Part shown: positions 1-12,826 of the stretch, in pieces | Position numbering within the stretch: position 1 is the first letter of the stretch | Layout of the letters: each line of letters starts with the position of its first letter | Virus record (IMG/VR): IMGVR_UViG_2939167301_000004 | Source: a virus | Lineage: Duplodnaviria > Heunggongvirae > Uroviricota > Caudoviricetes | Length of the DNA: 12,826 bases | Strand: one strand, 5' to 3' | Position numbers and translations under genes: made by a program | The notes under the pieces: model-generated | Database searches by the model: none | Seen by the model: only the letters and a program-made list of their open reading frames with translations | Told to the model about the DNA's origin: nothing

Positions 1-747
1 ATGAATCATCTTTACGAACAACTGACCGCACTTAAACTCACCGGCTTCCGTGATGCGCTTAAAAAGCAACTTGCTCAGCCGGGCACATACCAGGAGCTGG
101 GCTTCGAAGAACGCCTGTCATTACTGACAGCAGAAGAACTAACCTGCCGTGAAAACAGGAAGGCAGAGCGTCTGATCAAACATGCACGGTTCAGACTTAA
201 TGCTGAGTTATCAAAGCTGGATTATCGTAACAATAGAGGGCTGGACAGGGCCCTCATCCGTTCACTCAGTCAGGGAAACTGGTTAACCCTGAAACAAAAT
301 ATTTTACTGACCGGGGCCACCGGCAGCGGTAAAACGTTCCTGGCATGTGCACTTGGTCATAATGCCTGCCGACAGGGATACAAGGTCTACTATTATCGCC
401 TTAAAGCGCTGATGGAACAGTGCTATCAGGGGCATGCTGATGGAAGATACAGCAAACTTTTGACCAGGCTGAATAATAGCGATCTGCTGCTTCTGGATGA
501 CTGGGGGCTGGAACCTCTCTCATCAGAACAGCGTAGCGACCTGCTGGAAATAGTGGATCTGATGTACCAACGAGGCTCAATCATCGTAGTGAGCCAGTTG
601 CCGGTGGAAAACTGGTACAAAATGATCGGAGACTCCACACATGCGGATGCCATCCTAGATCGACTGGTTCATGGCAGTATCAAGATCGAACTTAAAGGAG
701 AATCAATGCGGAAAATACAATCTCCGTTGACCGAAGGAGATCAGTGA
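1..747 (+). CDS. istB: IS21-family IstB helper ATPase
   Basis: 248-aa ORF with Walker A (GATGSGKT) and Walker B (LLLLDDWG) motifs and IstB-like overall sequence. The ORF starts at window base 1, so the cognate istA would lie upstream outside the window. Confidence 0.85.
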   Translation: MNHLYEQLTALKLTGFRDALKKQLAQPGTYQELGFEERLSLLTAEELTCRENRKAERLIKHARFRLNAELSKLDYRNNRGLDRALIRSLSQGNWLTLKQNILLTGATGSGKTFLACALGHNACRQGYKVYYYRLKALMEQCYQGHADGRYSKLLTRLNNSDLLLLDDWGLEPLSSEQRSDLLEIVDLMYQRGSIIVVSQLPVENWYKMIGDSTHADAILDRLVHGSIKIELKGESMRKIQSPLTEGDQ

Positions 748-800
748 AGGTAATTTAAAAACGGTTCTGTGAAAGTGACACGAACCGATCTCCATCGATG
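1..800 (+). mobile_element. 3' portion of an IS21-family insertion sequence (istB plus right terminus); continues beyond window start
   Basis: istB followed by about 50-85 bp containing a direct repeat ACCGATCTCC (783-792 and 807-816), typical of multi-repeat IS21-family ends. Exact right terminus not determinable (somewhere 748-835). Confidence 0.5.
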
Positions 801-1403
801 TTACTCACCGATCTCCTTCACGGTAATACGCAACACTGACTGACGTGATGCCAGTTGCGCACTTTTACGCGAAAAAATCATGTTCTGCGCAGGGGTGAAT
901 TTTTCACGGCTGTCATCCACCGAAGCCACGTCAGGCCTGAATCCGATGGTCGTTAAAATGTCGCTATCCTGTGCGGAATAATTAATTTTTTCACCCTTCG
1001 CAAGCCAGGACAGAAGGGCTTCACGCAGGGCATCTGTGGCACGCTGTATGGCACAGTTTCGGGCAATGGCCGTCAGCTCACTGTAGCCCATCAGCTCTGG
1101 TGCCAGTGCGGCCGCCAGTACTGTGCCGTGCTGCTGCATAAAATCATTCAGCCGGTCGCGGATGCTGATGTGCTGAACGGCTTCATGCGAACGAATATAA
1201 CGACCGGCGGCCTGATTCACCTGCCATTTTCTGACTTCGATAATATTGCGTAATTCGTCCAGGCGGCTGACATTTCTGCCTTCTCCTGACAGAAGCCGCA
1301 GATATTCCTGTTCGGCCGCTGCCAGCTCATTTTTGCGTTGCAGCCATGCTGCTTTGTTATTCTGACAGGTGTCAAAGGCCTGCTGTAAGGCTGTGCTTTC
1401 CAT
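801..1403 (-). CDS. psu: P4 Psu-like polarity suppression / capsid decoration protein
   Basis: 200-aa ORF that I recognise as Psu-like, in the expected position downstream of delta in a sid-delta-psu operon. An IS21-family end lies immediately downstream, so the last ~10 codons may not be native. Confidence 0.65.
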   Translation of the reverse strand: MESTALQQAFDTCQNNKAAWLQRKNELAAAEQEYLRLLSGEGRNVSRLDELRNIIEVRKWQVNQAAGRYIRSHEAVQHISIRDRLNDFMQQHGTVLAAALAPELMGYSELTAIARNCAIQRATDALREALLSWLAKGEKINYSAQDSDILTTIGFRPDVASVDDSREKFTPAQNMIFSRKSAQLASRQSVLRITVKEIGE

Positions 1404-1476
1404 CGTTATCTCTTTCTCATCATGCTGAAGAATAAAAATACGGTGTGCGGCGACGGCCGGGGTTAACCGGCAGCCC

Positions 1477-1977
1477 TCATTCCAGACGCAGCGAATATGA
1501 TTGTGTTTTTAACCGTACTGGCGGCAGTTCCTGTTTTTCATGCAGGCGTTCTGCCAGTTCGTCCGGCGTGACCGGGCGGACAATGAAGCGGGTGATGGTC
1601 TGAAGCGTTTTAAACACCAGACCACAGCCCGGATCCGTGCACACATAAAAACGCTCGGTGACTTCCTGAGACAGACGCCGCGATGTTCTTGACAGCGCAA
1701 GGCCTTTACATCTCCGACAACAATATCCGGTAACAAGCATTCTTTTCGGGCGTTTCATACTGCCGGAGGCTGACGTCAGTGAATCGCGGTATCTCTGTTT
1801 GCCTGAAATGTATTCCATTCCTGAATCTTTACTGTCAGAGAAAAAGCTTTCACTCGCTTCAAATGTCGCAGAGCAATAAATATTCCGGCACTGTGCAATC
1901 ATTATCTTGGTGCCATCGTCCATGAAATGTGCGCGGCGGGTGTGAGCAACATGTCCACACGACGGGCAGTAAATCAT
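1477..1977 (-). CDS. delta: Delta-like late-gene transactivator (tandem Ogr-type zinc finger)
   Basis: 166 aa with two Ogr-like halves, each carrying C-x2-C ... C-x4-C motifs (CPSCGH...CRNIYC and CRRCKG...CTDPGCG). Its start overlaps the sid stop as ATGA (1974-1977). Confidence 0.8.
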   Translation of the reverse strand: MIYCPSCGHVAHTRRAHFMDDGTKIMIAQCRNIYCSATFEASESFFSDSKDSGMEYISGKQRYRDSLTSASGSMKRPKRMLVTGYCCRRCKGLALSRTSRRLSQEVTERFYVCTDPGCGLVFKTLQTITRFIVRPVTPDELAERLHEKQELPPVRLKTQSYSLRLE

Positions 1978-2641
1978 GACAGCAGTCCTCTGGCCTTAAG
2001 CACTGCTCCCTGCTGGTCTATTTTGTCCTGCCACACCTTGCGCTGTGCCGGTGTGCCTGCCACCTCATAATCCATGTGAGGAAGTGTTGCCGCTGACAGT
2101 CCGGTCAGCCGGAGAACCGGCTCGCCGGTGAGGCTGATTTGCATCTGTTTAATTTTCTGTTCCAGCGATGATTTCACCTGCTGCATGACAGCCTTTTCCG
2201 GTGCGACGTAGCCCTGATGGCCGGTGGTGTTGGCGAGCGGATTTTCCTGTACCAGAATGCTCAGATGCATTGCCCGGACAAGCGCCTCACAGGTTTCATT
2301 CAGGGCGTGTTCCAGCTCATGCTCTGCATACAGACTCAGAAGGTGATGATGTGCCTTCCGGTAGGCGGTGGCCGTGCTGTCACACGCCCCTTTCAGGCGT
2401 TCGCGTTCAAAATTCAGCACCACGGCCAGATTGTCATATTCCTGTACCAGCTCCCGGCGTGCCACGCGCTCAATGTGGCGCTGTTTCAGCTCGTCGCTCA
2501 GGACACCACCGGCTGCACGAAAGGCCGTGCGCCAGTCGTCAGCGTCGTTTCCGTCGGCCTGCGCCAGCGCATTTTTTTCCTGCTCTGTGAACCGCCCCGG
2601 GAATCCTGGAGACTAAACTTCCTGAGAAAGAGGTAAACAGG

Positions 2642-2968
2642 ATGACTAAAAATACTCGTTTTTCCCCTGAAGTCCGTCAACGGGCAGTCCGTATGGTTCT
2701 GGAAAGTCAGGGCGAATATGACTCACAATGGGCGACAATTTGTTCCATTGCTCCAAAGATTGGCTGTACGCCGGAGACTCTGCGTGTCTGGGTTCGCCAG
2801 CATGAGCGGGATACCGGGGGCGGTGATGGAGGGCTCACCACCGCTGAACGTCAGCGTCTGAAAGAGCTGGAGCGTGAAAATCGTGAACTGCGCCGCAGTA
2901 ACGATATCCTTCGCCAGGCTTCCGCTTATTTTGCGAAGGCGGAGTTCGACCGCCTCTGGAAAAAATGA
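2642..2968 (+). CDS. IS3-family transposase OrfA (HTH)
   Basis: 108-aa ORF with the N-terminal HTH and leucine-zipper-like region typical of IS3-family OrfA. An A6 run (2960-2965) sits at the orfA stop / orfB start overlap. Confidence 0.9.
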
Positions 2969-3855
2969 TGCCACTGCTGGATAAGCTGCGTGAGCAGTAC
3001 GGGGTCGGACCGCTATGCAGCGAACTGCATATTGCCCCGTCAACGTATTACCACTGTCAGCAACAGCGACATCATCCGGATAAACGCAGTGCCCGTGCGC
3101 AGCGCGATGACTGGCTGAAGAAAGAGATACAGCGCGTATACGATGAAAATCACAAGGTATACGGTGTGCGTAAAGTCTGGCGTCAGTTGTTACGGGAAGG
3201 TATCAGAGTGGCCAGATGCACTGTGGCACGTCTCATGGCGGTTATGGGACTTGCCGGTGTTCTCCGGGGTAAAAAGGTCCGTACGACCATCAGCCGGAAA
3301 GCCGTTGCCGCAGGCGACCGCGTAAACCGTCAGTTCGTGGCAGAACGACCTGACCAGCTGTGGGTGGCTGATTTTACTTACGTCAGCACATGGCAGGGCT
3401 TCGTCTATGTGGCGTTCATCATTGATGTGTTTGCCGGATACATTGTGGGGTGGCGGGTCTCATCGTCCATGGAGACGACATTCGTGCTGGATGCACTGGA
3501 GCAGGCGTTATGGGCCCGTCGACCGTCCGGCACGGTCCATCACAGTGATAAAGGTTCTCAGTATGTATCGCTGGCCTACACACAGCGGCTTAAGGAAGCC
3601 GGATTACTGGCATCAACAGGAAGTACAGGCGACTCGTATGACAACGCGATGGCGGAGAGCATCAATGGTCTTTACAAAGCGGAGGTAATACACCGTAAGA
3701 GCTGGAAAAACCGTGCAGAAGTGGAACTGGCCACACTCACGTGGGTGGACTGGTATAACAATCGACGATTGCTGGAAAGGCTGGGCCATACTCCTCCGGC
3801 AGAAGCAGAAAAAGCTTATTATGCTTCCATCGGAAACGATGATCTGGCAGCCTGA
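2965..3855 (+). CDS. IS3-family transposase OrfB (DDE catalytic domain)
   Basis: 296-aa ORF in the -1 frame relative to orfA with an rve-type DDE core. The A6 run at 2960-2965 is a candidate -1 programmed frameshift site producing an OrfAB fusion. Confidence 0.9.
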
Positions 3856-4039
3856 GTTCACAGATAAAATACTCTCCAGGAAACCCGGGGCGGTTCACTG
3901 CCCGTTCAATGGCCGTGACGGTCTCATCCATCAGGCGGGCGTTCTCAAGATGGGCGGCTCTGGCCTTTTCCAGTTGTGCCAGTGCGGGTTGCAGATATTC
4001 AGGGATAGTGTGGTCAGACATTTTCCGGCTCCTCGTCAC

Positions 4040-4111
4040 TTCAGGTTAAGAAAATTGTGACGTACACCGGACAGCAACACGACGCATTGCAGATGTGCCA
4101 GCCCTGACACA
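4040..4111 (-). promoter_or_regulatory. Candidate Psid late promoter with two TGT-N12-ACA activator dyads
   Basis: Perfect TGT-N12-ACA at 4056-4073 and 4094-4111, centred about 18 and 55 bp upstream of an inferred start near 4047 for sid (ATG 4021). This is the Ogr/Delta-type activator site architecture. Confidence 0.5.
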
Positions 4112-4190
4112 GGAGACTCATCCTCAGACCGGCAAGCCAGGAAAAGGTCGCAGGAAAAACCGGCTTACTGTTTGTTTTTTTATATTTTAC

Positions 4191-4294
4191 TGTTCACCTC
4201 TGTTCACCATAAGAAAAAAGATAAGTAATACAGTAAGTTAAAGGGTGAACAATCGCAGTAATGACTGTTCACCGTCTGTTCACCACTGTTCACC
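4191..4294. repeat. ori-like iteron cluster (six TGTTCACC octamers)
   Basis: TGTTCACC at 4191, 4201, 4266, 4277, 4287 and inverted at 4244-4251, with roughly 10-bp phasing, followed by an AT-rich tract (about 4300-4400). Matches the type I iterons bound by P4 alpha. Confidence 0.6.
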
Positions 4295-4452
4295 CGTTGA
4301 TGGGCTTTTTATGCTGTTTATTACTGTTTATTTTTATTAATTCACTGAAATAAATAAGAAAAAACAATTTGTATTTCACTATAAAAAATTCCAGGTCCTT
4401 CAGAACCCTTTGAGACCCTTCCAGTCCAGATGGATAAAAAACACACAGCCAT

Positions 4453-4520
4453 TGTAAGGTTGCCGGAACAAATTCCCCCTGTTGCGTCTGCTGAAAATAT
4501 TCACAAAATAAAGCGCTACC
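4453..4520 (+). promoter_or_regulatory. Candidate PLL late promoter upstream of vis
   Basis: Perfect TGT-N12-ACA dyad at 4453-4470 and an imperfect one about 36 bp downstream; would place a start near 4516, about 55 nt before the vis ATG. Confidence 0.4.
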
Positions 4521-4572
4521 CGAAGCCGGACGGACTTATCCGGTGCTGTATGGACATTAACGAGGTAGCCCG

Positions 4573-4839
4573 ATGCAAGCTGTTTTTTCTTCCCCGTCTC
4601 CCGCCCCTGTTACGCCACTGATGCCGCTGCCGGACATCACGCAGGAGCGTTTTTTACGTCTGCCGGAAGTGATGCACCTGTGCGGCCTGTCACGCTCGAC
4701 CATCTATGAACTCATCCGTAAGGGGGAATTTCCGCCGCAGGTGAGTCTTGGCGGTAAAAATGTGGCCTGGCTGCACTCTGAAGTCACCGCATGGATGGCC
4801 GGGCGCATTGCCGGACGCAAACGGGGGTACGACGCATGA
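4573..4839 (+). CDS. vis: AlpA-family phage regulatory protein (P4 Vis / orf88-like)
   Basis: 88-aa ORF with the AlpA-type HTH signature (RFLRLPEV...[17 protein letters not shown]); GAGG Shine-Dalgarno 7 nt upstream. Confidence 0.8.
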
Positions 4840-5435
4840 TGATGCCCGCTCTGCAAAAACTCCCTTTTTCTGGCTTGCCTTTTTCCGGCATTTGCGGATA
4901 TAGTTTTTCCGCTGTCGCAAAATCGGCAGCCGGGCGTGGAAACCCGTGTAACTCGAAGGCGACATATGACGCGCCATGCGTCTTTTTTTGTGTCGCAATC
5001 AACGCCACAGAGCGCCAGATTATGGTGTGGTGTGTGGTCAGTCGTGCAGATGGCATTCCGTGCATCCTGCCCGCGTCCGCTCATTATGCCGCAGAGTCAA
5101 TGGTAGCTCAGGCGGGGCAGCCTCCGGGCTGGCCGGTATTCTTCGAGGCCGGTATTTCCACCCCCGTCTGGGCTATCGCCATTGAGCGTGGAAACTCCGG
5201 CGATAGCAGTTATTTGCTACTCGAAGGAGGCTGCCTTATGGCTACAACCCTTACCCCCTCACACCCTGAATTTGTCTTTGTGTTTGCGGCTGTCCGTCGT
5301 GCAGACCGTCATCCCCGTATCTGTATGCTTCGCACCGTCGCCGGTGATGAACGCAGTGCCCGCCGTTCCCTTGTCCGTGACTATGTGCTCTCCCTTGCTG
5401 CCCGTCTGCCGGTGGTGGAGGTGTCCCGTGCGTAA
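4836..5435 (+). CDS. Long open frame (199 codons) spanning the immunity region; possibly eta-like; coding status uncertain
   Basis: Its ATG overlaps the vis stop as ATGA (4836-4839). The N-terminal two-thirds is low-complexity and contains the candidate PLE promoter and a terminator hairpin. There is a strong internal start (GGAGG then ATG at 5238) giving a 65-aa product in the same frame. Confidence 0.35.
4875..4904 (+). promoter_or_regulatory. Candidate sigma70 promoter (PLE-like)
   Basis: TTGCCT (4875-4880), 18-bp spacer, TATAGT (4899-4904). Confidence 0.45.
4968..4989 (+). terminator. Intrinsic terminator-like hairpin in the leader (attenuator candidate)
   Basis: GACGC-gccat-GCGTC stem-loop followed by seven T residues, about 60 nt downstream of the candidate promoter. 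Confidence 0.4.
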
Positions 5436-5715
5436 TAAAAAAGCCCCTCAGACCGTCTCAGCACGTCATGACGCCCGTGAACACCTCAGCATTGAGGCTT
5501 ACCATAAGCTCAACCGCGCCAGCGCCGTATCCCGGTTTGTTGGGGGTGATTTGATTCACCGTGAACTCTCCGGCCTGCATCAGCTCTACATTCCGCATAT
5601 TTTCAGCTACCTGAATGAAGATATTGATTTTGTGCTGAATGAGCTGAAAGCCAAAGGCCTGTGCCGCGATTTTCTCGCCCAGCAGAAAGACCGGGGAGAC
5701 AGGACGCATGTTTGA
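5428..5715 (+). CDS. Small protein at the epsilon position (95 aa; candidate helper-derepression protein)
   Basis: GTG start with GGAGG 6 nt upstream; overlaps the stop of the preceding frame. Size and position match what I recall for P4 epsilon; the sequence itself was not verified. Confidence 0.5.
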
Positions 5716-6163
5716 TTTTCCCCAGCCCGGTGAGATTTACCGTTCTGCCGGTTTTCCCGATGTGGCCGTGGTCGGCATTCTGGAAGACGGTATTCCGTGG
5801 GAAATGCCATACCGCTGCCCGGAAATTGTCTGGAACCCGTACCGCCGTAAATTCAGTATCCTTGTGCGTATCCTCGCCGACGGGCGCACCACAGACATCC
5901 CGCTGGGGCGTTTTCTGCGGGAATTTACCTGTGACCGTCCTGACCTGTTTAAACGCAGCCCCGTAAACCGGCATGCGGTACTGAAAGAAATGGCCGGAGA
6001 CCCGGAATTACAGAAATGGCGGGAGAAATATCTGGATATTTACCCGCAGGACACTGTTCCGGTCAGCCGGGCAGCACCGGTAGCGCGGGAATGGCGGGAA
6101 ATTCCCCGCACGGAGCCTGACCCGGAAACCACCCCGGATAACAGTTACCGCAATTATCTGTAA
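5708..6163 (+). CDS. Hypothetical protein (P4 orf151-like)
   Basis: 151-aa ORF; its ATG overlaps the upstream stop as ATGTTTGA (translational coupling). Confidence 0.6.
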   Translation: MFDFPQPGEIYRSAGFPDVAVVGILEDGIPWEMPYRCPEIVWNPYRRKFSILVRILADGRTTDIPLGRFLREFTCDRPDLFKRSPVNRHAVLKEMAGDPELQKWREKYLDIYPQDTVPVSRAAPVAREWREIPRTEPDPETTPDNSYRNYL

Positions 6164-6298
6164 TTAAAAAACGACACCCGAAAAATTAAATGTGCGTATT
6201 CGCGCAGGGATACGCACGTCTTCAGGAGACGCAGATATGCCTTATCAGTTAATGCAACCGGCACGGAATGCAGTCATCTGTCACAGGGAGGAAAGCAA

Positions 6299-6619
6299 AT
6301 GAAAACACCCTTACCGCCCGTCTTACGCGCTGCCCTTTACCGTCGCGCTGTCGCCTGTGCCTGGCTGACCGTGTGCGAACGTCAGCACCGCTACCCGCAT
6401 CTCACCCTTGAGTCACTGGAGGCGGCCATCGCCGCTGAGCTGGAGGGCTTTTATCTGCGCCAGCACGGTGAGGAAAAAGGGCGTCAGATAGCCTGTGCCC
6501 TGCTGGAAGATTTAATGGAATCCGGCCCCCTGAAGGCCGCGCCGTCGCTGTCCTTTCTCGGGCTGGTTGTGATGGATGAACTCTGTGCCCGTCACATAAA
6601 AGCGCCGGTACTGCACTGA
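6299..6619 (+). CDS. Hypothetical protein (P4 orf106 / cnr-like copy-number regulator candidate)
   Basis: 106-aa ORF with GGGAGG Shine-Dalgarno, immediately upstream of the primase gene. Confidence 0.6.
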
Positions 6620-6633
6620 AGGAGAACAACACC

Positions 6634-8967
6634 ATGAAAATGAACGTAACCGCCACCGTCAGCCATGCGCTCGGCCACTGGCCGCGTATTCTCCCGGTGC
6701 TGGGGATTCAGGTGCTGAAGAACCGTCATCAGCCCTGTCCGGTCTGTGGCGGGAGTGACCGCTTCCGTTTTGATGACAGGGAGGGGCGCGGCACCTGGTA
6801 CTGCAATCAGTGTGGTGCCGGTGACGGCCTGAAACTGGTTGAAAAGGTGTTTGGTGTCTCCCCGTCCGACGCGGCCGCAAAGGTGGCTGCCGTGACCGGC
6901 AGCCTGCCCCCGGCTGACCCGGCAGTGACGGCCGCCGCCGGTGCTGAAACAGACGCTGCCCGGAAGAACGCCGCCGCACTGGCACAAACCCTGATGGCAA
7001 AAACTCGTCCCGGAACCGGTAACGCCTACCTGACCCGCAAGGGCTTTCCCGGCCGGGAATGCCGGATGCTGACCGGCACACACAGAGCCGGTGGCGTGAG
7101 CTGGCGTGCCGGTGACCTTGTGGTGCCACTGTATGACGACAGCGGCGAGCTGGTTAACCTTCAGTTAATCAGTGCTGACGGCCATAAGCGCACCCTGAAA
7201 GGCGGACAGGTCAGGGGCACCTGTCACACCCTTGAAGGACAGAATCAGGCCGGAAAACGTCTGTGGATAGCGGAGGGATACGCGACCGCACTTACCGTAC
7301 ATCACCTGACCGGTGAAACGGTGATGGTGGCGCTTTCTTCCGTGAACCTCCTTTCTCTGACCAGCCTTGCCCGGCAGAAGCATCCGGCCTGTCAGATTGT
7401 CCTTGCCGCAGACCGTGACCTCAGCGGTGACGGCCAGAAAAAAGCCGCCGCAGCCGCAGATGCGTGTGAGGGCGTTGTTGCCCTGCCGCCGGTCTTCGGT
7501 GACTGGAATGATGCCTTCACGCAGTACGGCGGGGAGGCCACCCGTAAGGCCATTTATGATGCCATCCGGCCACCGGCTGAAAGCCCGTTCGACACCATGA
7601 GCGAAGCAGAGTTTTCCGCCATGAGTACCAGCGAAAAGGCCATGCGTATCTATGAGCATTACGGCGAGGCGCTCGCGGTCGATGCCAACGGCCAGCTTCT
7701 GTCCCGTTATGAAAATGGTGTCTGGAAGGTGCTGCCGCCACAGGACTTTGCCCGGGATGTGGCCGGGCTGTTTCAGCGTCTGCGCGCGCCGTTCTCCTCC
7801 GGGAAGGTGGCCTCCGTGGTGGACACCCTGAAGCTGATTATTCCGCAGCAGGAAGCCCCCTCCCGCCGCCTGATTGGCTTTCGTAACGGCGTGCTCGACA
7901 CGCAGAACGGCACGTTCCACCCGCACAGTCCGTCACACTGGATGCGCACCCTGTGCGATGTGGATTTCACCCCGCCGGTGGACGGTGAAACGCTGGAGAC
8001 CCACGCCCCCGCGTTCTGGCGCTGGCTTGACCGTGCCGCCGGTGGCCGTGCGGAAAAACGCGACGTGATTCTGGCCGCACTGTTTATGGTGCTGGCAAAC
8101 CGCTACGACTGGCAGCTCTTTCTGGAGGTGACCGGTCCCGGCGGCAGCGGCAAAAGTATCATGGCCGAAATAGCCACCCTGCTGGCCGGGGAGGATAACG
8201 CCACGTCGGCCACCATTGAGACGCTGGAATCCCCGCGTGAACGTGCCGCGTTAACTGGCTTCTCACTGATACGCCTGCCGGACCAGGAAAAATGGAGCGG
8301 CGACGGTGCCGGACTCAAGGCCATCACCGGCGGCGATGCGGTGTCCGTTGACCCGAAATACCGGGATGCGTACTCCACGCACATCCCGGCGGTGATTCTG
8401 GCCGTGAACAATAACCCGATGCGCTTCACCGACCGCAGCGGCGGCGTGTCACGCCGGCGGGTGATTATTCACTTCCCGGAACAGATAGCCCCGCAGGAGC
8501 GCGACCCGCAGCTTAAGGACAAAATCACCCGCGAGCTGGCGGTCATCGTGCGTCACCTGATGCAGAAATTCAGCGACCCGATGCTCGCCCGGTCACTGCT
8601 TCAGTCCCAGCAGAACTCAGACGAGGCACTGAACATCAAACGGGATGCCGACCCGACGTTTGATTTTATCGGCTATCTGGAAACCCTGCCGCAGACCAGC
8701 GGCATGTATATGGGGAACGCCAGTATCATCCCGCGTAATTACCGTAAATACCTCTATCACGCCTATCTGGCCTACATGGAGGCAAACGGCTACCGGAATG
8801 TACTCAGTCTGAAAATGTTCGGGCTGGGGCTGCCGGTGATGCTGAAGGAATACGGACTGAATTACGAGAAGCGCCATACCAAACAGGGGATACAGACCAA
8901 CCTGACGCTGAAAGAGGAAAGCTACGGCGACTGGCTGCCAAAATGTGACGACCCTGCAACAACCTGA
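6634..8967 (+). CDS. alpha: P4 alpha-type primase-helicase
   Basis: 777-aa ORF with an N-terminal Cys4 zinc motif (CPVCGG...CNQCG), a central primase region and a C-terminal P-loop NTPase (GPGGSGKS); AAGGAG Shine-Dalgarno. Confidence 0.9.
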   Translation: MKMNVTATVSHALGHWPRILPVLGIQVLKNRHQPCPVCGGSDRFRFDDREGRGTWYCNQCGAGDGLKLVEKVFGVSPSDAAAKVAAVTGSLPPADPAVTAAAGAETDAARKNAAALAQTLMAKTRPGTGNAYLTRKGFPGRECRMLTGTHRAGGVSWRAGDLVVPLYDDSGELVNLQLISADGHKRTLKGGQVRGTCHTLEGQNQAGKRLWIAEGYATALTVHHLTGETVMVALSSVNLLSLTSLARQKHPACQIVLAADRDLSGDGQKKAAAAADACEGVVALPPVFGDWNDAFTQYGGEATRKAIYDAIRPPAESPFDTMSEAEFSAMSTSEKAMRIYEHYGEALAVDANGQLLSRYENGVWKVLPPQDFARDVAGLFQRLRAPFSSGKVASVVDTLKLIIPQQEAPSRRLIGFRNGVLDTQNGTFHPHSPSHWMRTLCDVDFTPPVDGETLETHAPAFWRWLDRAAGGRAEKRDVILAALFMVLANRYDWQLFLEVTGPGGSGKSIMAEIATLLAGEDNATSATIETLESPRERAALTGFSLIRLPDQEKWSGDGAGLKAITGGDAVSVDPKYRDAYSTHIPAVILAVNNNPMRFTDRSGGVSRRRVIIHFPEQIAPQERDPQLKDKITRELAVIVRHLMQKFSDPMLARSLLQSQQNSDEALNIKRDADPTFDFIGYLETLPQTSGMYMGNASIIPRNYRKYLYHAYLAYMEANGYRNVLSLKMFGLGLPVMLKEYGLNYEKRHTKQGIQTNLTLKEESYGDWLPKCDDPATT

Positions 8968-8984
8968 CCCTCATGACCCACCTG

Positions 8985-9008
8985 ACCGGCATCTGCCGGT
9001 CTTTTTTT
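8985..9008 (+). terminator. Rho-independent terminator after alpha
   Basis: ACCGGCA-tc-TGCCGGT hairpin followed by a T7 run. Confidence 0.55.
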
Positions 9009-9026
9009 ATCCCGATATCCCCCGCA

Positions 9027-9320
9027 GGTGAACAATCCACTGTTCACCCTTCACCGTATATTCACCCGTTATCATACTGAAATTAAAAGAGAAAAACGAA
9101 AGGTGAACAGTGTGAACAATCAAATCAAAAAAAACTTTTTTCTTCCTGAGTGATTTCAGTACGGGGGATTAATCACCGGTATGAGTCACACCGGCAGAAT
9201 GCCGGAGGTGAAGAATCGAATGTTCACCCTTCACCCATTATTCACCACCTATCACTCTGAAATAAAAGGAGAAAACAGAAAGGTGAACAGTGTGAACAGT
9301 TCTTTCGAAAAAAAATTTTT
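9027..9320. repeat. crr-like region: two ~115-bp direct repeats carrying iterons
   Basis: Units at about 9027-9140 and 9207-9320 (180-bp period), each with GGTGAACA / TGTTCACC / TTCACC(C/G) / TGTGAACA octamers. Confidence 0.65.
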
Positions 9321-9342
9321 TATGTGGATAAAAGATGCACTG

Positions 9343-9369
9343 GTTTGGATCCGAGCTACGGATCCAAAC
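9343..9369. repeat. Perfect 11-bp inverted repeat (GTTTGGATCCG-agcta-CGGATCCAAAC)
   Basis: Read directly from the sequence; contains two GGATCC sites. Confidence 0.6.
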
Positions 9370-9510
9370 TTACTGATTAAAAATGATTTAACTTTCCGAT
9401 TTATTGATGGGCTGAAAATAGATTGGTCAGAAAAACAGTGGGGGCACAAAAGGGGGCATATTTCATTGTTGTGTTTTATTATTTGTTTTTTATCATTAAC
9501 TTATTTTGAT

Positions 9511-9533
9511 GTTTGAGTCCGGCCTTCGCACCA
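9511..9533 (+). other. attP-type core resembling the 3' end of a tRNA-Leu gene
   Basis: GTTTGAGTCCGGCCTTCGCACCA resembles a T-loop / acceptor-stem / CCA 3' end. There is no upstream tRNA body: the 5' T-stem complement is absent. Confidence 0.5.
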
Positions 9534-9547
9534 TCGGAACATCAATA

Positions 9548-9570
9548 GACGTCAACGGACGTCTTTTTTT
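9548..9570 (+). terminator. Rho-independent terminator just after the att core
   Basis: GACGTC-aacg-GACGTC hairpin followed by a T7 run. Confidence 0.5.
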
Positions 9571-9614
9571 GTGCCTAAAATCCAGTATCCGCAAGGCTTT
9601 CCTCGCTTTTTCAC

Positions 9615-9650
9615 TCAACCTAAGTCAACCTGATTCAATCTACATCAACT
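9615..9650 (+). promoter_or_regulatory. Four 10-bp-phased TCAAYY direct repeats (candidate integrase arm-type / autoregulatory sites)
   Basis: TCAACC at 9615 and 9625, TCAATC at 9635, TCAACT at 9645. An 8-bp inverted repeat GGGTACAA (9660-9667) / TTGTACCC (9694-9701) follows, upstream of the int start. Confidence 0.4.
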
Positions 9651-9731
9651 TACTGATGCGGGTACAACTGCGGGTATTTCCCGGTTCGATAATGTTTGTA
9701 CCCACACAGAACCCTTGAAAGGATACTCATC

Positions 9732-10833
9732 ATGGCTCTGAGTGATGTGAAGGTTCGTTCGGCTAAGCCTGAAGCAAAAGCCTATAAGCTGACCGACGGT
9801 GAAGGCATGGTTTTGCTGGTTCACCCTAACGGCTCCAAATACTGGCGGCTACGTTATCGCTTTGGCGGTAAAGAGAAGATGCTGGCATTGGGGAAATACC
9901 CCGAAGTGTCGTTGGCGGATGCCAGGGCACGCCGGGATGAGGCTCGTAAGCTTTTAGCTAATGGTGTCGATCCCAGTGAAAACAAGAAAGCTGTTAAGGT
10001 AGAACAGGAACAAGAGGCGATAACGTTGAAGTAGTCGCCAGAGACTGGCACGCCAGCAATCAGAAGTGGTCGGCATCGCATAGCGCTCGTGTTTTGAAAA
10101 GTCTGGAGGATAATCTCTTTACTGCTATCGGTAAGCGGAACATTGCGGAACTGAAGACGCGGGATCTTCTTGTACCCATTAAAGCAGTCGAGTCATCCGG
10201 GCGGCTCGAAGTTGCCGCCCGTTTACAGCAGCGTACTACCGCGATTATGCGCTTTGCCGTTCAGAGCGGCTTAATCGACTACAACCCCGCGCAAGAGATT
10301 GCAGGTGCGGTTGCTACGGCGAAAAGACAGCACCGTGCAGCTCTTGAACTGAACCGTATACCTGAATTACTTCATCGCATAGATCACTATTCTGGCAGAC
10401 CGTTAACTCGGCTGGCGGTTGAACTCACTTTATTGGTTTTCATCCGTTCGAGCGAGCTGCATTTTGCCCGCTGGTCAGAAGTAGATTTTGAAACGGCTAT
10501 GTGGACAATCCCAGGTGAGCGTGAGCAACTGGAAGGAGTCAAGCATTCTCAGCGTGGCTCGAAGATGCGGACACCACACCTTGTACCTTTGTCGCGGCAG
10601 GCCCTAAGTATTTTGGAAAAGATCAAAAGCATGAGCGGAAATTGAGAGCTGATTTTTGTGGGCGATCACGATCCACGTAAGCCGATGAGTGAGAATACGG
10701 TGAACAAGGCTTTGCGCGTAATGGGGTATGACACGAAGGTCGAGGTTTGTGGGCATGGCTTCAGGACGATGGCTTGTAGTTCGTTGATTGAGTCGGGATT
10801 ATGGTCGAGGGATGCGGTAGAGCGGCAGATGAG
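9732..10833 (+). pseudogene. int: P4-type tyrosine integrase, inactivated
   Basis: N-terminal MALSDVKVRSAKPEAKAYKLTDGEG... is a P4-family integrase signature. There is a frameshift near 10020-10035, an in-frame TGA at 10643-10645, and a 3' truncation by IS629 at 10834 (about 368 codons retained; the catalytic C-terminus is missing). Confidence 0.8.
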
Positions 10834-10875
10834 TGAACCGCCCCGGGTTTCCTGGAGAGTGTTTTATCTGTGAAC

Positions 10876-11762
10876 TCAGGCTGCCAGATCATCGTTTCCG
10901 ATGGAAGCATAATAAGCTTTTTCTGCTTCTGCCGGAGGAGTATGGCCCAGCCTTTCCAGCAATCGTCGATTGTTATACCAGTCCACCCACGTGAGTGTGG
11001 CCAGTTCCACTTCTGCACGGTTTTTCCAGCTCTTACGGTGTATTACCTCCGCTTTGTAAAGACCATTGATGCTCTCCGCCATCGCGTTGTCATACGAGTC
11101 GCCTGTACTTCCTGTTGATGCCAGTAATCCGGCTTCCTTAAGCCGCTGTGTGTAGGCCAGCGATACATACTGAGAACCTTTATCACTGTGATGGACCGTG
11201 CCGGACGGTCGACGGGCCCATAACGCCTGCTCCAGTGCATCCAGCACGAATGTCGTTTCCATGGACGATGAGACCCGCCACCCCACGATGTATCCGGCAA
11301 ACACATCAATGATGAACGCCACATAGACGAAGCCCCGCCATGTGCTGACGTAAGTAAAATCAGCCACCCACAGCTGGTCAGGTCGTTCTGCCACGAACTG
11401 ACGGTTTACGCGGTCGCCTGCGGCAACGGCTTTCCGGCTGATGGTCGTACGGACCTTTTTACCCCGGAGAACACCGGCAAGTCCCATAACCGCCATGAGA
11501 CGTGCCACAGTGCATCTGGCCACTCTGATACCTTCCCGTAACAACTGACGCCAGACTTTACGCACACCGTATACCTTGTGATTTTCATCGTATACGCGCT
11601 GTATCTCTTTCTTCAGCCAGTCATCGCGCTGCGCACGGGCACTGCGTTTATCCGGATGATGTCGCTGTTGCTGACAGTGGTAATACGTTGACGGGGCAAT
11701 ATGCAGTTCGCTGCATAGCGGTCCGACCCCGTACTGCTCACGCAGCTTATCCAGCAGTGGCA

Positions 11763-11766
<4 letters not shown>
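10876..11766 (-). CDS. IS3-family transposase OrfB (copy B)
   Basis: 296 aa, one substitution (Q to R) relative to copy A OrfB. Confidence 0.9.

Positions 11767-12826
<1,060 letters not shown>

Follow-up and report, generated by a model that had tools for sequence, protein, structure and literature searches.

A stretch of 12,826 nucleotides (nt) from the IMG/VR virus record IMGVR_UViG_2939167301_000004 (Caudoviricetes), here called the window, was analysed, and all coordinates are positions in this window unless another locus is named. The window holds the right-hand part of a P4-type satellite prophage, which is integrated in Escherichia coli at leuX, a tRNA-Leu gene. Its genes comprise psu, delta, a disrupted sid, an alpA-like helix-turn-helix gene, an epsilon-like gene and alpha, which encodes 777 amino acids (aa); the P4 immunity and replication genes through alpha are located on the plus strand upstream of sid. 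The disruption of sid, the gene for capsid size determination, is caused by an insertion sequence (IS) identified as IS629, which is complete and lies in the orientation opposite to sid. The features of the locus are collected in Table 1.

IS629 within sid and its target site

The inserted element starts with TGAACCGCCCCGGG and ends with CCCGGGGCGGTTCA, and its termini form an imperfect inverted repeat pair. It carries the two open reading frames (ORFs) orfA and orfB, the latter overlapping the former in the -1 frame, and the A-run GGAAAAAATG is followed by an ALIL pseudoknot across the overlap, the stimulator of programmed -1 frameshifting in IS3-family elements. Members of this family transpose by a copy-out/paste-in route via a circular intermediate, and their OrfAB transposase is produced by -1 frameshifting. 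About 39 E. coli records, both chromosomes and plasmids, contain copies that agree with the one in sid at 100% over all 1310 bp. Compared with the curated mobile_element feature 'IS3 family IS629' of LC567824.1, a Stx2a phage, it shows 99.9% identity over 1310 bp and the same ends; that copy disrupts a phage regulatory gene ('interrupted by IS629') and is flanked by the duplication CCAG. The names given to close relatives in RefSeq are IS629 or IS1203 family. By all sequence-level criteria, the inserted element is IS629, as the first-pass annotation of this DNA had named it. Its intact ORFs and ends are consistent with activity, for which the fresh insertion provides indirect evidence.

The element is flanked by CTG on both sides, and the positions that had been proposed for the element and for the two CTG copies proved exact to the base. 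The chance of a bare match between 3-nt flanks is 1/64. When the IS was removed, window positions 833-12826 were aligned to the genome of E. coli EJN001 with 0 mismatches in 10,681 bp, and strain EBJ001 gave the same score. Because the empty site of EJN001 contains a single CTG, reading ...TTTTTTCCTGCTCTGCCCGTTCAATGG... (also printed as ...CCTGCTCTGCCCGTTC...), and is otherwise identical over this length, the CTG target duplication is proven. In a survey of four O157:H7 genomes, the target duplications of IS629 were 3-4 bp long without a clear target consensus, and 62% of the copies in the four strains were located in prophages or prophage-like elements (PMC3271280).

In-silico deletion of positions 2588-3900 joined segments 4021-3898 and 2587-1974 of the minus strand in frame, resulting in 244 codons followed by a stop, as had been predicted in the first-pass annotation. 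The protein alignment to P4 Sid that had been suggested there as a check (PDB 7JW1 chain E) gave an end-to-end match of residues 1-244 to residues 1-244 with 243/244 identical positions (E = 7e-157) and E236V as the sole substitution. A Pfam search of the restored protein returned no matching model. On the strength of this alignment, the interrupted gene is identified as P4 sid.

The start codon of sid and the promoter region upstream of it are unaltered by IS629. This region contains two TGT-N12-ACA dyads, which, in view of the late promoters of P2 and P4, we take to be putative sites of activation by Ogr/Delta in P_sid, the late promoter. Translation of the transcript from the intact P_sid would yield a 94-aa chimera, in which 41 Sid residues are followed by 53 residues from the antisense strand of IS629. 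An exact-protein look-up of this chimera in a public gene-position index retrieved no record. According to the structure determined by cryo-electron microscopy, Sid binds gpN hexamers through residues 161, 163-165 and, in helix alpha-6, 219-224, and it dimerises and trimerises via long stems, whereby the T=4 lattice is imposed (PMC7552001). Since all gpN-contact and oligomerisation elements lie after residue 41, the allele is predicted from the published Sid structure to be null for size determination; with its reading frame interrupted, the gene is a pseudogene in this window. The chimera would lack the gpN-contact and oligomerisation regions, no Sid cage would be formed and the capsids of the helper would remain T=7. 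The inactivation of sid with loss of size determination, as claimed in the first-pass annotation, is thus supported by the structure.

Table 1. Features of the sid::IS629 locus and its surroundings, with window coordinates (except where comparison loci are named)
Feature	Position	Strand	Basis or remark
IS629 (IS3 family), complete, 1310 bp	2588-3897	+	Orientation opposite to sid
Left terminal inverted repeat (IRL), 25 bp	2588-2612	+	Agrees with reverse-complemented 3873-3897 at 23/25 positions
Right terminal inverted repeat (IRR), 25 bp	3873-3897	+	Imperfect repeat pair, TG...CA ends
IS629 orfA, 108 aa, HTH_Tnp_1	2642-2968	+	Pfam PF01527, E = 6e-13; ORF list
IS629 orfB, 296 aa, HTH_21 and rve DDE integrase core	2965-3855	+	Pfam PF00665, E = 5e-28; PF13276
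ALIL pseudoknot	2923-3039	+	Rfam RF01497, 120 bits (gathering score 50)
Left CTG copy of the 3-bp target-site duplication	2585-2587		Part of sid 3' fragment
Right CTG copy of the 3-bp target-site duplication	3898-3900		Part of sid 5' fragment
sid 5' fragment with 41 native codons (MSDHT...AIERA) and the start codon at 4021-4019	3898-4021	-	ORF analysis
sid 3' fragment, about codons 42-244 and stop	1974-2587	-	Without own promoter or start codon
Chimeric ORF, 94 aa (41 residues of Sid and 53 encoded antisense to the right end of IS629)	3737-4021	-	ORF analysis
Two TGT-N12-ACA dyads upstream of sid (4056-4073, 4094-4111)	4056-4111	-	Untouched by IS629
delta, 166 aa, Ogr/Delta zinc-finger activator	1477-1977	-	Pfam PF04606; P4 annotation
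psu, 200 aa (versus 190)	801-1403	-	Pfam PF07455, E = 5e-88
ISEc12 (IS21 family), right end	1-832	+	Pfam IstB_IS21; alignment to an ISEc12 of PRO_A-1478-6M-A_ESBL and to EJN001
isrK Hfq-binding RNA	4911-4988	+	Rfam, 71.3 bits
C4 antisense RNA	5096-5183	+	Rfam, 76.7 bits
attR core, 19/20 nt of P4 attP / leuX 3' end; right boundary of the satellite	9515-9533	+	End of P4 homology; att comparison
Second complete IS629, in intB-like integrase pseudogene outside the satellite	10834-12143	-	7 positions differ from the sid copy
ISEc12-occupied sites in the B1-56 and CH4799 comparison loci	4565-7155; 4565-7158		Coordinates of these loci

Origin and age of the insertion

For the search of further occupied sites, junction probes of 300 nt with a coverage threshold of 80% were compared with 5,426 complete E. 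coli genomes. Neither the left nor the right junction was found in any of them (0/5,426 each); the reconstructed empty site was present in 975. Furthermore, among 980 complete E. coli genomes with a sid of this allele family, 973 have the gene in one piece. Exact junction scans of genome-representative and metagenome collections gave no match, and a literature search for sid::IS629 or for the strains EJN001 and EBJ001 revealed nothing relevant. As the empty site is present in the isogenic strain EJN001 and the junctions are absent from the collections searched, the insertion postdates the split of the source strain from EJN001. The insertion is best described as a simple, recent transposition, in line with the wording 'simple, probably recent' of the first-pass annotation. 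In the lineage of this window, a copy of IS629 transposed into codon 42 of sid under duplication of CTG.

A recent transposition of IS629 that knocked out sid of a P4-type satellite is very likely the best explanation overall, and nothing was found that contradicts this structural reading of the insertion. IS3-family elements can undergo precise excision, and the comparison with EJN001 alone gives no direction, so that the occupied site might be ancestral and IS629 lost from EJN001 and EBJ001, e.g. via an IS-excision enhancer. We consider this course very improbable, as P4 and 975 of the 5,426 genomes have the empty site and none has either junction, exactly one CTG would have to be restored, and zero substitutions over a flank of 10.7 kb leave little time for a gain followed by a loss. 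An artefact of assembly, in which a repeat was collapsed or misplaced, would be conceivable for a multicopy element with a second copy 6.9 kb away; however, misassembly of repeats does not give a perfect 3-bp target duplication with both flanks in register, and the 7 differing positions show that the copy in sid is not a duplicate of its neighbour. We consider such an error very improbable as well. A similarly faint chance is given to an import of the sid::IS629 allele by homologous recombination with incoming DNA instead of transposition in this lineage. P4-like satellites are widespread and recombining (PMC8628076), but a donor of the junctions was found neither in the 5,426 complete genomes nor among genome representatives or metagenome contigs, and the flanks represent the resident allele of the clade, with EJN001 as the only one at 100% among the matches listed and the next at 99.3%.

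The second IS629 copy of the window is flanked by GAG and GTA and hence without target duplication, indicative of a deletion or rearrangement next to it. A local hop from this neighbouring copy was rejected as the origin of the copy in sid because the two differ at 7 positions. EJN001 is likewise not among the records with a 100% identical IS629, and the donor was, as we infer, another copy, either elsewhere in the genome or possibly on a plasmid. The two copies are inverted relative to each other and bracket 6.9 kb of satellite DNA, an arrangement that could mediate inversion. An inversion between them was tried as an explanation and rejected, as the genes follow one another as in P4 and EJN001 and the duplication of the copy in sid is retained.

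The satellite prophage and ISEc12 at psu

Window positions 833-9534 are 98% identical to P4 DNA in two pieces split by IS629. The homology ends at P4 position 4077, directly beside the annotated attP core at P4 positions 4078-4097. The core set of P4-like satellites consists of int, psu, delta and sid as well as alpA, epsilon and alpha (PMC8628076). In EJN001, the satellite starts at the 3' end of the tRNA-Leu gene downstream of ahr, i.e. leuX, and is ordered as intact int, a variable region of two genes, cos, psu, delta and sid, followed by the early genes, alpha, crr and attR. Both cos and attL were located in EJN001; the window itself shows only attR. The EJN001 hotspot between int and cos (8875-11977 of the EJN001 locus) encodes two proteins, one hypothetical (145 aa) and one of the ParA family (890 aa), as candidate anti-phage cargo. 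The leuX prophages of AF3, RM14723 and E47 have an EJN001-like layout with differing cargo between int and cos, and variable cargo at this position agrees with the defence hotspot of P4-like satellites (PMC9122126). The satellites of all four strains share the architecture of the window including the 19-nt attR and the intB-like pseudogene behind it, and they possess an intact sid of 735 bp, whereas the window has sid::IS629 and in addition ISEc12 at the psu stop codon.

A frameshifted integrase by alpha (about 9700-10833, cut by the second IS629) was considered as the int of the satellite, which would then have been immobile already, and rejected. The fragment does not belong to the satellite because P4 homology stops at the attP core and the real int of EJN001 adjoins leuX beyond the hotspot. 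Judged by this comparison, the piece of integrase that follows attR lies outside the satellite and is an older remnant of intB-like type. Further to the right, an istB fragment (IS100kyp family) and then a TetR/AcrR gene that crosses the right window edge (truncated according to the EJN001 annotation) are located at 12264-12826. The P4-type immunity RNA region with C4 and isrK appears intact. Two direct repeats of 120 nt (9022-9141 and 9202-9321), 81% identical and 180 nt apart, correspond to the crr repeats of P4.

At the left window edge, ISEc12 with istB at 1-747 ends with ...GGTAATACGCA at position 832; it sits between psu and cos, the latter as seen in EJN001. The last base of ISEc12 replaces part of the psu stop codon, and Psu is thereby extended from 190 to 200 aa by the tail LRITVKEIGE. 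The translation of Psu in the window ends with ...SRQSVLRITVKEIGE*, and TAA is found in EJN001 at the equivalent position. No match was obtained in an exact-protein look-up of the 200-aa Psu. The same psu junction is present in B1-56, where a 2581-bp ISEc12 with a 5-bp duplication (ACACA) resides in a P4-like satellite at tRNA-Ser and cos is kept on the far side. In CH4799, the satellite is P4-like and located at tRNA-Sec, psu is only about 90% identical, and the duplication is ACAGG. In B1-56, CH4799 and the window, ISEc12 occupies the homologous site GGGGAWTTTT(G)|ACA.., which suggests a preference of ISEc12 for targets located between psu and the terminator on the cos side. In PRO_A-1478-6M-A_ESBL, ISEc12 occupies a different place in a related satellite, close to where orf151 ends, and has the 7-bp duplication GCCTGAC. 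If the ISEc12 insertion in the window is simple, the satellite would have a length of 12.27 kb (the span in EJN001) plus 1.31 kb plus 2.59 kb, i.e. about 16.2 kb or 139% of P4.

Late operon, satellite transfer and significance

On the basis of gene order and domains, sid is at the head of a late operon sid-delta-psu, whose promoter is presumably Ogr/Delta-dependent. The ATG of delta overlaps the TGA of sid (ATGA), and delta lies downstream of IS629 in the same operon. After the premature stop at 3737, the transcript would run on untranslated for about 1.8 kb before delta and psu are reached. Of this passage, the IS would contribute 1.3 kb to be transcribed without translation, and the translational coupling of sid and delta via ATGA would be lost. 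Since delta and psu follow in the same operon and the start codon of delta overlaps the stop codon of sid, IS629 probably diminishes the expression of both genes, a point that was not raised in the first-pass annotation.

The chances appear even that the main phenotype results from a loss of delta and psu through polarity and not from that of Sid, with transactivation of helper late genes and capsid stabilisation being lost; this defect would be graver than a change of capsid size. This is favoured by the transcription of sid, delta and psu as one operon from P_sid, by the overlap of the delta ATG with the sid stop codon, and by the untranslated RNA after the stop at 3737, a likely substrate of Rho. 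A consensus scan of positions 1900-4300 found no sigma-70-like promoter site, including none between IS629 and delta, and Delta is a conserved, essential component of P4-like satellites (PMC8628076). On the other hand, the helper's own Ogr can switch on late genes, and Psu is already altered by the ISEc12 junction. A polar effect would supplement the reading of sid::IS629 as a null allele and not replace it.

In the scan of positions 1900-4300, terminator-like hairpins occurred at background numbers, with one weak hairpin in IRR on the sid strand, and polarity is not settled by this result. Read-through, or an outward promoter borne by the IS, may feed delta and psu. The genes and sites int, defence hotspot and cos lie beyond the left window edge behind ISEc12. 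The attR core, GAGTCCGGCCTTCGCACCA, is one G short of the 20-nt core of P4 attP and leuX; each of the five P4-like prophages examined at leuX has this 19-nt form at attR, and their attL cores have the full 20 nt.

Mutants of P4 in sid are packaged inefficiently as dimers or trimers in P2-sized heads, and multimer packaging in P2-sized capsids was accompanied by an increase in helper progeny (PMC6893505; bioRxiv 10.64898/2026.03.30.715334). By analogy with these mutants, the loss of sid does not in itself seem to stop transfer of the satellite, a caveat absent from the first-pass annotation. The sid1 amber mutant of P4 and engineered deletions of P4 sid are, like the allele of the window, loss-of-function mutations in the same gene (243/244 identical product), and the expected phenotype is shared: no T=4 capsids, less efficient dimer/trimer packaging and weaker interference with the helper (PMC6893505; bioRxiv 10.64898/2026.03.30.715334). 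In contrast to these, the lesion of the window is a 1.3-kb IS and neither a point mutation nor a clean deletion, it adds length and probable polarity on delta and psu, and it resides in a chromosomal prophage that also bears ISEc12.

The IS629 copies in prophages of O157:H7 and other Shiga toxin-producing E. coli are the same 1310-bp element with duplications of 3-4 bp and without a strong target consensus (PMC3271280). Here, by contrast, the target is sid of a leuX P4-type satellite, the closest match, EJN001, is a urine isolate with a genome of 4.8 Mb, and the insertion site was found in no collection searched. Element and gene are both known, and the allele, for which these collections gave no second case, is unremarkable in kind and involves no new mechanism or element. 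It represents a textbook transposition caught early, with an intact element, an exact target duplication and an isogenic empty site, and sid::IS629 is usable as a marker for strain typing within the EJN001 clade.

DNA as long as the genome of P4 or that of P2 is packaged most efficiently, and an upper limit was not found (PMC9942202). Because packaging favours these lengths, a satellite of about 16.2 kb presumably exceeds what a T=4 head can take up, and the loss of sid could, as a long shot, be compensatory or permissive in that such a satellite would be transducible only as a dimer in a T=7 head. If this were true and the ISEc12 insertion simple, two copies (about 32.3 kb) would nearly fill the P2-sized T=7 head. 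Alternatively, sid::IS629 might be a stage on the way to a satellite that is fixed in place as an immobile defence island. The allele adds a data point on the erosion and reshaping of phage satellites by insertion sequences, among which natural sid knock-outs are uncommon (sid contiguous in 973/980).

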